DNA of 64,000 nucleotides. Source: Shigella phage vb_GEC_SH_GT. This document shows, one piece after another, positions 58,519-60,329 of this stretch. The position numbers and the translations under genes were made by a program. Under the pieces are notes generated by a model. That model worked only from the letters and a program-made list of their open reading frames with translations. It did no database searches and was not told where the DNA came from. The DNA is taken from the sequence record OR887633; one strand, written 5' to 3'. Each line of letters opens with the position of its first letter. The stretch's first letter is position 1.

Positions 58519-58522
<4 letters not shown>

Positions 58523-59007
58523 TTTAATTTCCTGCATTCAGTGATAAAGCTATTTAAATTTTGAGCATATTTCTTTTCATCATAAATCTTTTGCTGTCTG
58601 CGTAAACGCCATGGCATTTCAATGAACACGCACCATATTCCTGATAGTACTGCTGCTGTAAAAATATTAACAAGTATAATTAAAAGAATCCAATCTTCCG
58701 TTCTGCCTACTGGACTTTCTCCAAAGAAGCAAAATACAAATGATGTCACAGGAAAACTAATAATATACCACAGAATAACCTTCTTATCTGTGAACCAATC
58801 AGCGTTCGTTAACTTAGCACGACCATTTTGAATACACACGAATTTATCATCTGTTACAGTAGATGGCTTAACTGCTTGATATCCCATTCTAAACTCCCTA
58901 ATCAGCAAATTTTTCATATCTTCGGAACAGCCATTCCAGTCAACTCTATCAACTGAAATGCCATCATCCCCATCATCTAAATCATACCAGCGAGTTTTTA
59001 AAATCAT
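58519..59007 (-). CDS. 2-TM membrane protein, ECR-tail family member 1
   Basis: 162 aa; two TM helices then cytoplasmic tail ending [11 protein letters not shown]. Confidence 0.5.
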
Positions 59008-59378
59008 TTGATTTTCCTACAATCATTCACGAATTCTTTCATTGATTCATTTTCAATATAAGACATGTAGTTATTATATTCTTTTAATTGTATTTTGTAA
59101 TCCTTTTTTCTTTGCCAATTTATTTTAAAATTATCATAATGAAAATATAAAATAATACCAAAGAATGAAAATAATGAAATCGCTATAGTATAATGAAGTT
59201 CACTCCAAACTTCTATTATATCTACTATACCGCTGACATTACTGCGGATGTTTAAAATAATACAGTCAATCATTAATCCAATAAGACTACCCGCAAGAGC
59301 TGCAGCCAACGCCACAGCAAAAATTAAAAATGACTCAGAAAACGAATATTTGACTTTATTTAGTTTTGGCTTTTGCAT
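59004..59378 (-). CDS. 2-TM membrane protein, ECR-tail family member 2
   Basis: 124 aa; two TM helices; tail ending KEFVNDCRKIK. Confidence 0.5.
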   Translation of the reverse strand: MQKPKLNKVKYSFSESFLIFAVALAAALAGSLIGLMIDCIILNIRSNVSGIVDIIEVWSELHYTIAISLFSFFGIILYFHYDNFKINWQRKKDYKIQLKEYNNYMSYIENESMKEFVNDCRKIK

Positions 59379-59773
59379 CGTGATTCCTTAACAAATTTCA
59401 TAATTTCATCAAATTCATACGCGGCAAGTTTAAGCTGATGTTCCTTTTTAATCTTTTTACACTGTGCTTTCCAATCACGTACACGTTTACGATAATGTCT
59501 TCCTTGATACCAATATCCTATCCAATTTACAGGTACTAATAAAAGTGGAACTATTAATGGAAGAATTAGCATTAACACAAGTATTTCGCCAGAATCAATA
59601 TCAGTCATAACATCTAAAACACCTCCAATAATCAATAGAATTACAAATGATATGAGTATAACAGGACCTATTAACACATCAGTAGAAATTATCTGGCGCT
59701 TTAATTCATACTTTAAGGGTTTACTTGGAAGATACATTGATGGCTTTGACATATTCTCTACATTCCTTAACAA
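59360..59773 (-). CDS. 2-TM membrane protein, ECR-tail family member 3
   Basis: 137 aa; two TM helices; tail ending MKFVKESRCKSQN. Confidence 0.5.
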   Translation of the reverse strand: MLRNVENMSKPSMYLPSKPLKYELKRQIISTDVLIGPVILISFVILLIIGGVLDVMTDIDSGEILVLMLILPLIVPLLLVPVNWIGYWYQGRHYRKRVRDWKAQCKKIKKEHQLKLAAYEFDEIMKFVKESRCKSQN

Positions 59774-60329
59774 ATTTTTCTAGTAATAAATCGCTTTCAA
59801 AACTAGGATTTTCCACGAATTTATCAAAAAGATCATCAACAATAGTTAAGACATTCTTTTTACTAAGAATACGTTTATTTTCATGCTTCGTTTCAGAATC
59901 AACTATAAGAGTAAAGAAATATTTCTTTCCCTGAAATTTTACTGTAGTATCAATATAGAATAAATTTGACTTTTGTAAGTTACGTTTAAACCATGCGTCA
60001 CTTAAACTATAAACACCGAGATAATCAAAATCGTCGTTTAAATAACAAACTGTCCATTCAGGAGAAATGAAATCAGTAAATTCAACATCAAAATCGCATG
60101 TCAATGAATAAATTGATTCAATACTGTTAATAAGTATTCCAGGACGTATTAAAGACTTTTTACCTCTGGAAAATCTTCCAGAAAGACTTTCATCAGTTTC
60201 ATATGAAGAACCCCAATAATAATTACGTCCTTCTGCCAGGCGTTTAAGAGCATTTAGTAATTGGTCTGGAACATCAACCTGTCTTTGGAACTCTTCAAAC
60301 ATTGAATTGAAATCACTTTGCATTTTCAT
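59721..60329 (-). CDS. soluble protein, ECR-tail family member 4
   Basis: 202 aa, no TM; C-terminus LEKFVKECREYVKAI shares the tail motif. Confidence 0.5.
   Translation of the reverse strand: MKMQSDFNSMFEEFQRQVDVPDQLLNALKRLAEGRNYYWGSSYETDESLSGRFSRGKKSLIRPGILINSIESIYSLTCDFDVEFTDFISPEWTVCYLNDDFDYLGVYSLSDAWFKRNLQKSNLFYIDTTVKFQGKKYFFTLIVDSETKHENKRILSKKNVLTIVDDLFDKFVENPSFESDLLLEKFVKECREYVKAINVSSK

Follow-up and report, generated by a model that had tools for sequence, protein, structure and literature searches.

A conserved C-terminal tag on otherwise divergent membrane and soluble proteins of the e.2–e.5 locus of T4-like phages

The stretch of DNA considered here (the window, 64,000 nucleotides of Shigella phage vb_GEC_SH_GT, sequence record OR887633) contains four consecutive, overlapping minus-strand genes, e.2 to e.5, whose products end in a similar short peptide, in the following called the tag. 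The region 58000–61600 matched 680 phage records, with 95–98% identity to many T4-like phages of Escherichia, Shigella and Yersinia, and the window can be assigned to a Tequatrovirus (T4-like) genome. When compared with the annotation of T4, the minus-strand genes follow the order denV, an internal protein, e (lysozyme), nudE, e.2–e.6, small open reading frames (ORFs) including e.8, and a cluster of transfer RNA (tRNA) genes. The four ORFs had been singled out by a sequence-only reading, and they are present with the coordinates and C-termini given there, in an overlapped block that extends from nudE toward the tRNA region, as had also been stated. They can be regarded as real genes and as orthologues of T4 e.2, e.3, e.4 and e.5. 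Protein identity to the T4 copies is 85–96%, and order, strand and overlaps from nudE to e.6 are alike in the annotations of T4 and phage Lutter. Full-length matches were obtained to PHROGs 2203 (e.2; 3e-78), 2330 (e.3; 1e-61), 2604 (e.4; 1e-70) and 2607 (e.5; 3e-107). Homologues at 92–95% identity carry PF26873 (Phage_T4_Y06O; e.4) and PF26876 (Phage_T4_Y06P; e.5). PF26896 is apparently the e.2 family, because an e.4/e.2 chimera of phage vB_EcoM-UFV05, P0098, carries both PF26873 and PF26896. The T4 proteins are designated Y06M–Y06P, and all these PHROG and Pfam families are without an assigned function.

The tight overlap of the genes was confirmed, but the range of 4–50 nt proposed for it was not, as it depended on a TTG start of e.4 at position 59773. 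The likely start is the ATG at 59752 (130 aa, MSKPS...), and the TTG is improbable because T4 and all homologues begin at the former. With this correction, the overlaps amount to 32 nt (e.5/e.4), 19 nt (e.4/e.3), 4 nt (e.3/e.2) and 19 nt (e.2/nudE). The window copy of e.2 is intact (162 aa), whereas that of the T4 reference is frameshifted to 102 aa (L001 2992–3461, corresponding to T4 67491–67960); despite the frameshift, the tail can be read in a different frame shortly ahead of nudE. The intact gene is the usual form among Tequatroviruses, and in 527 of 533 records the match to e.2 covered at least 80% of its length. Some records label homologues of e.3 and e.4 as "sulfurtransferase", of e.5 as "phosphoserine phosphatase", of e.6 as "host specificity protein" and one gene of the block as "DNA primase". 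None of these GenBank labels was supported by the Pfam, NCBIfam, PHROG and PDB searches.

According to the sequence-only reading, all four proteins share a tail of the type F-V-x-E-C-R. This applies, as F-[IV]-x-[DE]-C-R, to e.2, e.3 and e.5, whereas e.4 has only the relaxed form F-V-K-E-S-R-C. The best ungapped 7-mer block of the four tails (SFITECR, EFVNDCR, KFVKESR and KFVKECR) reaches a sum-of-pairs BLOSUM62 score of 142. Shuffled controls scored 52.6 ± 10.1 (z ≈ 8.8), and none of 5000 shuffles attained the observed value, which places the similarity far above chance. A six-frame scan of the window gave three instances of F[IV]x[DE]CR, one each in the tails of e.2, e.3 and e.5; the looser F[IV]xxCR adds only a stop-to-stop fragment of seven codons, FIVYCRI, and is absent from T4 72.4–168.9 kb. 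The sequence examined for this motif amounts to about 160 kb of Tequatrovirus genome. In e.5, the tag is followed by an 11-residue extension to the C-terminus.

The tag is retained in orthologues with no more than 13–50% identity. The e.5, e.4, e.3 and e.2 orthologues of Mosigvirus APCEc01 (36–50% identical) keep it as LEQFIMECREY, EFVKEIRC, ENFIKECRK and ERFITECRNLR, and an additional gene of this phage, encoding a protein with two transmembrane (TM) helices, ends NLENFIKECRGK. In Dhakavirus MX01, ORF131, ORF130 and ORF119 keep the tag. The soluble protein at the e.5 position (ORF131) ends LNRFIAECREYAKEVQNA, a 2-TM protein ends LETFIKECKS, and e.2 ends LNEFIEECRK. A distant metagenomic contig contains two e.5-like and two 2-TM genes with the tag. 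The spread was surveyed in 35 loci from IMG/VR, fetched with e.6 as the anchor at e.6 identities from 99% to 51%. Their coding-strand ORFs (104,634 residues) contain F[IV]xxCR 78 times, in 77 cases within the last 25 residues; in the opposite-strand ORFs (30,191 residues) it occurs once, and not near a C-terminus. The consensus of 54 distinct tags is Φ(-3)-[E/N](-2)-x-F-[I/V]-x-x-C-R, with Φ a hydrophobic residue in 49 of the 54. The hydrophobic positions -3, 0, +1 and +4 share one helix face. Only 14 of these tags have Glu at +3, a residue whose conservation is limited to the lineages of T4, Mosigvirus and Dhakavirus.

When the tag is removed, BLASTP sorts the 84 distinct tagged proteins into 18 groups, so the earlier claim of a conserved tail on otherwise divergent proteins stands. 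One of these groups is a large and divergent soluble family located where e.5 lies (92–270 aa), at least ten consist of 2-TM proteins and several of small soluble proteins (92–162 aa). An alignment of the proteins at the e.5 position (13–20% identity) has only M1, N98, F186, C190 and R191 as invariant columns, the last three being part of the tag. A combined hidden Markov model of the C-terminal part of e.2 (e.2C), e.3 and e.4 was too weak for distant members and gave only 15 bits with Mosigvirus gp171. The tag thus appears to be the one robustly shared element of these proteins, kept across relatives, strictly C-terminal, specific to this locus and attached to very different protein bodies.

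The predicted membrane topology agrees with what had been claimed for the four proteins. A Kyte-Doolittle scan gave each of the proteins e.2–e.4 two hydrophobic helices but detected no such helix in e.5, which is consistent with e.5 being soluble. The three membrane proteins have basic N-termini, acidic loops and basic tails with a net charge of +3 to +9. By the positive-inside rule applied to these charge counts, they are predicted to be N-in/C-in two-helix membrane proteins with cytoplasmic tails of 54 (e.4, basic), 44 (e.3) and 32 residues (e.2). In addition, e.2 has a cytoplasmic N-domain of 76 residues ahead of its TM helices. Because the tails of e.2–e.4 would be C-in and e.5 soluble, all tags are expected to be cytoplasmic and to lie close to the inner membrane or directly at it. 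The membrane members carry the tag about 20–45 residues beyond the second TM helix.

Searches of Pfam, NCBIfam, PADLOC and, for e.5 and e.6, PDB sequences gave no informative match for the proteins of the block. An exhaustive profile search with e.5 covered 1.84 billion representative proteins and retrieved six, among which P0117 was the sole distant one and led to the metagenomic contig mentioned above. AlphaFold models of e.5 are of low confidence, with a predicted local distance difference test score (pLDDT) of 54.7 for an alignment of 8 sequences and 59.6 for one of 20. In both, a mixed α/β body is followed by a helix at the C-terminus (residues 179–197) that bears the tag. Literature searches with gene names and motif strings, full text included, yielded no description of the tag. 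As it is absent from the annotations and literature searched, this instance appears to be new.

The constant neighbour of the tagged genes is e.6, which is 51–99% identical across T4-like phages. Of 29 parsed loci, 27 have the strict tag on the ORF that comes first after e.6, and the remaining two have a split e.5 gene. Small membrane ORFs between e.6 and nudE or the end of the locus number 78, of which 65 are tagged, 27 with the strict tag and 38 with a relaxed one in which V, I, A, M, L or S takes the place of Cys, or Lys that of Arg. The background of the relaxed pattern is 0.8% among opposite-strand ORFs and 4% among ORFs upstream of e.6, and none of these resembles the extended consensus. 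In the three loci that had been reached through e.5 relatives alone (L013, L052 and L054), e.6 immediately precedes the tagged e.5-like and 2-TM genes. The conserved unit consists of e.6, a tagged soluble protein and one to several tagged membrane hairpins, and in some loci additional tagged genes are dispersed up to nudE. Being constant and conserved while the tagged genes next to it vary, e.6 is, by inference, the leading candidate for a partner of the tag.

The e.6 protein itself gave no useful sequence match in the PDB. By eye it seemed similar to PspA/IM30; this relationship was not supported, since nine diverse homologues, including the window copy, gave no match to the PspA_IM30 profile at E ≤ 1. 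BLASTP against an E. coli PspA sequence was marginal, with only 24% identity and E = 0.03. The N-terminus of e.6 (LKKLVxFIRxKLG, conserved across genera) forms an amphipathic Φ-x-x-F-I helix that resembles the front half of the tag. A like-with-like packing surface at this helix is possible.

Table 1. Genes, tags and regulatory elements of the e.2–e.5 locus (window coordinates).
Feature	Position	Strand	Remarks
e.5 orthologue	59721..60329	-	Soluble, 202 aa; PHROG 2607; PF26876 on homologues
e.5 tag F-V-K-E-C-R	59757..59774	-	Within predicted C-terminal helix, residues 179-197
e.4 orthologue	59360..59752	-	130 aa from ATG at 59752; 2 TM; PHROG 2604; PF26873 on homologues
e.4 relaxed tag F-V-K-E-S-R-C	59375..59395	-	R-C codons CGA TGC contain the e.3 ATG
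e.3 orthologue	59004..59378	-	124 aa; 2 TM; PHROG 2330
e.3 tag F-V-N-D-C-R	59016..59033	-	Followed by AGG AAA ATC AAA TGA
e.2 orthologue, full length	58519..59007	-	162 aa; 2 TM; PHROG 2203; PF26896 on homologues
e.2 tag F-I-T-E-C-R	58531..58548	-	Overlaps nudE start region
e.6 orthologue	60371..60964	-	197-aa helical protein
nudE (Nudix hydrolase)	58082..58537	-	Start overlaps e.2 tag region
GC-rich UUCG-loop hairpin	60350..60365		GGGGCTTCGGCCCC on coding strand; between e.6 and e.5
Two T4 late-promoter boxes (TATAAATA)	58058..58078	-	Downstream of nudE, just upstream of lysozyme gene e

The hairpin between e.6 and e.5 (Table 1) is a perfect GGGGC-UUCG-GCCCC and is annotated as a terminator in the Lutter record. 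It marks the 5' boundary of the overlapped block from e.5 to nudE, at the sole non-overlapped junction between e.6 and nudE. No T4 late-promoter box was found upstream of e.2–e.5; in this region, the only two precede e. The absence of such boxes suggests pre-late expression of e.2–e.5.

Further conserved elements surround the tagged genes in other phages. The tagged 2-TM genes of Mosigvirus, Dhakavirus and other T4-like phages are closely followed, on their downstream side, by arrays of three to five small soluble paralogues (65–105 aa), all of which end W-[V/I/F]-[S/A/T]-S-S-x-x-C at the extreme C-terminus. This second, different shared tail of the same hyperplastic region occurs, for example, at L007 3857–4651, at L010 531–1570 and in many of the loci L019–L049, and is absent from the window. 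Another conserved protein that the window lacks is soluble, about 228 aa long and ends ...NAQVYLEFPMEGW; it is found in Mosigvirus, Dhakavirus and other lineages. Its gene lies directly upstream of an e.2-like tagged 2-TM gene, whose start it overlaps (L009 778–1464, L010 3719–4408, L040 9152–9841, L048 6893–7579 and L054 4233–4916). The tRNA cluster beyond the small ORFs (62067–62820) comprises nine genes, for Arg, Asn, Tyr, "Met" (CAT), Thr, Ser, Pro, Gly and Leu. The same stretch of T4 contains Arg, segB, Ile, Thr, Ser, Pro, Gly, Leu and Gln. The gene with the CAT anticodon occupies the place of the T4 tRNA-Ile gene, and Asn and Tyr are found where T4 has the homing endonuclease segB.

The tag may be a portable, cytoplasmic helical motif for docking or co-assembly, located at the C-terminus and perhaps directed at e.6. 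This interpretation, which takes up the docking motif proposed at the outset, is put forward with middling confidence. The tag would form a two-turn amphipathic helix with positions -3, 0, +1 and +4 on one face, flanked by an acidic or polar residue and the Arg. In e.2–e.4, this helix would terminate the basic cytoplasmic tail that follows an N-in/C-in TM hairpin, and in e.5 it would terminate a soluble protein. It would thus gather soluble e.5 and the variable membrane hairpins at one common site, formed either by the tags of each other or by a shared partner, for which e.6 is the leading candidate. The lack of late promoters suggests a role in pre-late host takeover or in a membrane function. 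A lipid-binding amphipathic helix is unlikely, considering that F, C and R are invariant in the soluble members and position -2 is usually acidic. A more far-reaching version can be offered only tentatively and is probably not correct in full. Here, the tag would be the address label of a modular system, and e.6, or the tags themselves, would serve as a hub at the inner membrane for fast-evolving payloads involved in host takeover or counter-defence. Soluble payloads (e.5-like or small, 92–160 aa) and 2-TM payloads would plug in via the Φ-x-x-F-[IV]-x-x-C-R helix.

Several observations weigh against a docking role of the tag. The partner is a candidate suggested by synteny, and the link to e.6 was itself largely ascertained through e.6, which served as the anchor for collecting the loci. 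The low-confidence models of e.5 leave the tag helix either free or packed on its own domain. Many membrane members have Val, Ile, Ala or Met in place of the Cys, which makes a single uniform chemistry unlikely; a metal- or disulfide-based role of the Cys was rejected as a general mechanism on these grounds, and helix packing is favoured over it since the Cys is so often swapped for an aliphatic residue. Finally, every tag in the window overlaps the ribosome-binding site of the next gene, and part of the local conservation of the tag can be attributed to this dual-coding constraint. The DNA coding for ECREYVKA, which also contains the start of e.4, is identical at 24 of 24 nt between Tequatrovirus and Mosigvirus.

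This overlap could mean that the conserved element is a nucleic-acid signal at gene junctions, be it a Shine-Dalgarno (SD) or translational-coupling cassette, a RegA-like operator or a recombination cassette. The tails of e.3 and e.2 end with the string TGY AGG AAA WTM AAA TGA, which provides an SD sequence (AGGA), a 7-nt spacer and an ATGA stop/start overlap. Those of e.5 and e.4 share the 15-nt AAATTTGTTAAGGAA, which contains AAGGA. Within the V-K-E codons of e.4, this AAGGA is the SD sequence of e.3, and the Cys codon of e.4 supplies the TG of the e.3 start. Natural recombinants also join at tag repeats. In contig L006, e.2 was lost exactly between the tag-coding repeats of e.3 and e.2, leaving an e.3 tail that is a hybrid (…DCRK|LK) and leads straight into nudE. 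The UFV05 chimera (106 aa) fuses the N-terminus of e.4 in frame to e.2 from TM1 to the tail, with the joint at a "...PV..." shared within TM1. On the other hand, the 71 distinct tag-coding sequences use all synonymous codons for the invariant residues: TTT 45 times and TTC 26 times for Phe, TGC 36 times and TGT 35 times for Cys, and all six codons for Arg, besides six codons at the Ile/Val position. The distance from the tag to the next start ranges from 11 to 95 nt. In ORF131 of MX01, the SD sequence (GAGG) is separate and downstream of the tag, the Arg codon of which is CGC, and e.5-like proteins may continue for up to 15 residues after the tag. As a primary cause, a nucleic-acid signal is largely refuted by this variation and is held to be extremely improbable. 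Since synonymous codons and the distance to the start vary freely, selection appears to act on the tag peptide, with the overlap of the ribosome-binding site as a second layer; occasional use of the tag-coding DNA as a recombination site would be another secondary layer.

If selection acts on the peptide, explanations other than docking have to be considered as well. The tagged proteins may owe the tail to shared ancestry only, as a remnant of tandem duplication or domain shuffling that forms an intramolecular helix without a common partner. Relationships among the membrane members do exist: e.3 weakly matches the e.4 PHROG (E = 0.008), hhalign aligns e.3 and e.4 with their tags over 112 columns (E = 6e-5) and e.2 and Mosigvirus gp171 over 60 columns, e.2, e.3 and e.4 have one architecture, and in-frame chimeras are viable. 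However, tag-less 2-TM pairs are mostly no better than reversed-sequence controls in profile-profile comparison (19 of 36 pairs beat them; e.3 versus e.4, E = 0.0024), soluble families of 92–270 aa have the tag and no TM hairpin to pack it on, and the tag is far more conserved than the rest of these proteins, all of which makes ancestry on its own rather improbable. Its C-terminal, exposed position in the cytoplasm and the basic residues that follow it in many members (CRKLK, CRKIK, CRGK) would also fit a degron or stability signal read by FtsH, Lon or a ClpXP-type protease, timing the removal of pre-late proteins. Such a signal is unlikely. Recognition of a free carboxyl end is disfavoured by the variable distance of 1–15 residues between tag and C-terminus, and invariant F, C and R combined with helical periodicity are more specific than known degrons. 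Still less probable, to a degree that we would call it remote, is a nascent-chain arrest or termination-modulating peptide of the SecM/MifM type that couples synthesis or insertion to the downstream gene. It would account for conservation at the amino-acid level, for a tag always within about 20 residues of the stop and so in the exit tunnel at termination, for nearly every tagged gene overlapping or abutting a downstream start, and for the spacing from TM2, which falls within the range (about 20–45 residues past a TM segment) where membrane insertion pulls on the nascent chain. The tag, though, does not resemble known arrest motifs and notably lacks a Pro/Gly stall site, its amphipathic pattern is more typical of a folded interaction surface, and a ribosome stalled on it would cover most downstream starts, not expose them. 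The 2-TM proteins could instead be holin/antiholin-like or act in superinfection exclusion, the tail being just a charged cytoplasmic domain. Although they are small N-in/C-in proteins with highly charged C-tails, encoded two genes upstream of the endolysin gene e, this is improbable to about the same extent as the degron: no holin or lysis-category match was found in Pfam, PHROGs or NCBIfam, late boxes lie only between nudE and e, T4 encodes its holin t elsewhere, and the same tag on soluble proteins would be left unexplained.

T4 is the best-studied lytic phage, and about half of its genes, e.2–e.6 among them, are without a function. As the most conserved feature of some 18 otherwise unrelated protein groups at one locus, the tag offers a concrete experimental handle and leads to a prediction open to direct test, namely joint action of the tagged proteins, perhaps including e.6. 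If the tag were an address label, it would explain how payload genes can be exchanged in a hypervariable region while staying connected to one machine. It would also mean that the terminal targeting peptides of T4-like phages extend beyond the capsid-targeting sequence (CTS), of which the tag would be the C-terminal counterpart. The result also bears on annotation, as the profile libraries used here support none of the functional labels attached to these genes in GenBank.

Repeated elements at gene boundaries are familiar from the PeSL cassettes of T4-type phages, intergenic promoter/stem-loop DNA motifs (PMC2839356, PMC4122927). Both kinds of element are found in hyperplastic regions, where PeSLs mediate gain, loss and shuffling of genes (PMC2839356, PMC4122927), and two recombinants were seen here. 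Unlike a PeSL, the tag is part of the coding sequence, and its conservation concerns the amino acids, whereas its codons vary freely; the e.2–e.5 locus is not covered in the PeSL papers (PMC2839356, PMC4122927). Class II holins, pinholins and small membrane proteins of the T4 Imm type resemble the 2-TM proteins in size, topology, charged tail and proximity to the endolysin gene, but differ in that no family match links them, no late promoter lies upstream and the tag extends to soluble proteins.

Closer in logic is the CTS of the T4 internal proteins, an N-terminal targeting peptide that the prohead protease removes at an (L/I)-x-E site. It, too, is a short terminal peptide on otherwise unrelated proteins of a hypervariable T4-like locus. 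Two internal-protein-like ORFs of the window (56319–56792 and 57278–57574, minus strand) begin with a CTS, one as MKTYQEFITE, the core EFITE of which is similar to SFITEC in the tag of e.2. This likeness may be coincidental, given that distant tags do not conserve Glu at +3. The CTS is N-terminal, whereas the tag is C-terminal in 77 of 78 cases; the conserved C-R of the tag is absent from the CTS; the tags of the window do contain [IV]-x-E; and integral membrane proteins are implausible as capsid cargo. Encapsulin cargo-loading peptides, dockerin-type tags and ΦxxΦΦ motifs likewise join diverse payloads to one receptor by a short conserved terminal element (the ΦxxΦΦ motifs being short and helical), and the hydrophobic periodicity of the tag is that of a two-turn helix. 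These C-terminal cargo peptides have no sequence relationship to the tag, half of the payloads of which are membrane hairpins and the receptor of which is only hypothetical. The CTS and encapsulin-type peptides are therefore best seen as analogies of logic, not as families to which the tag belongs. A shared terminal peptide for targeting or docking is of a known kind; its occurrence at the C-terminus of both membrane and soluble proteins, confined to the e.6–nudE locus of T4-like phages, is a new instance of it.

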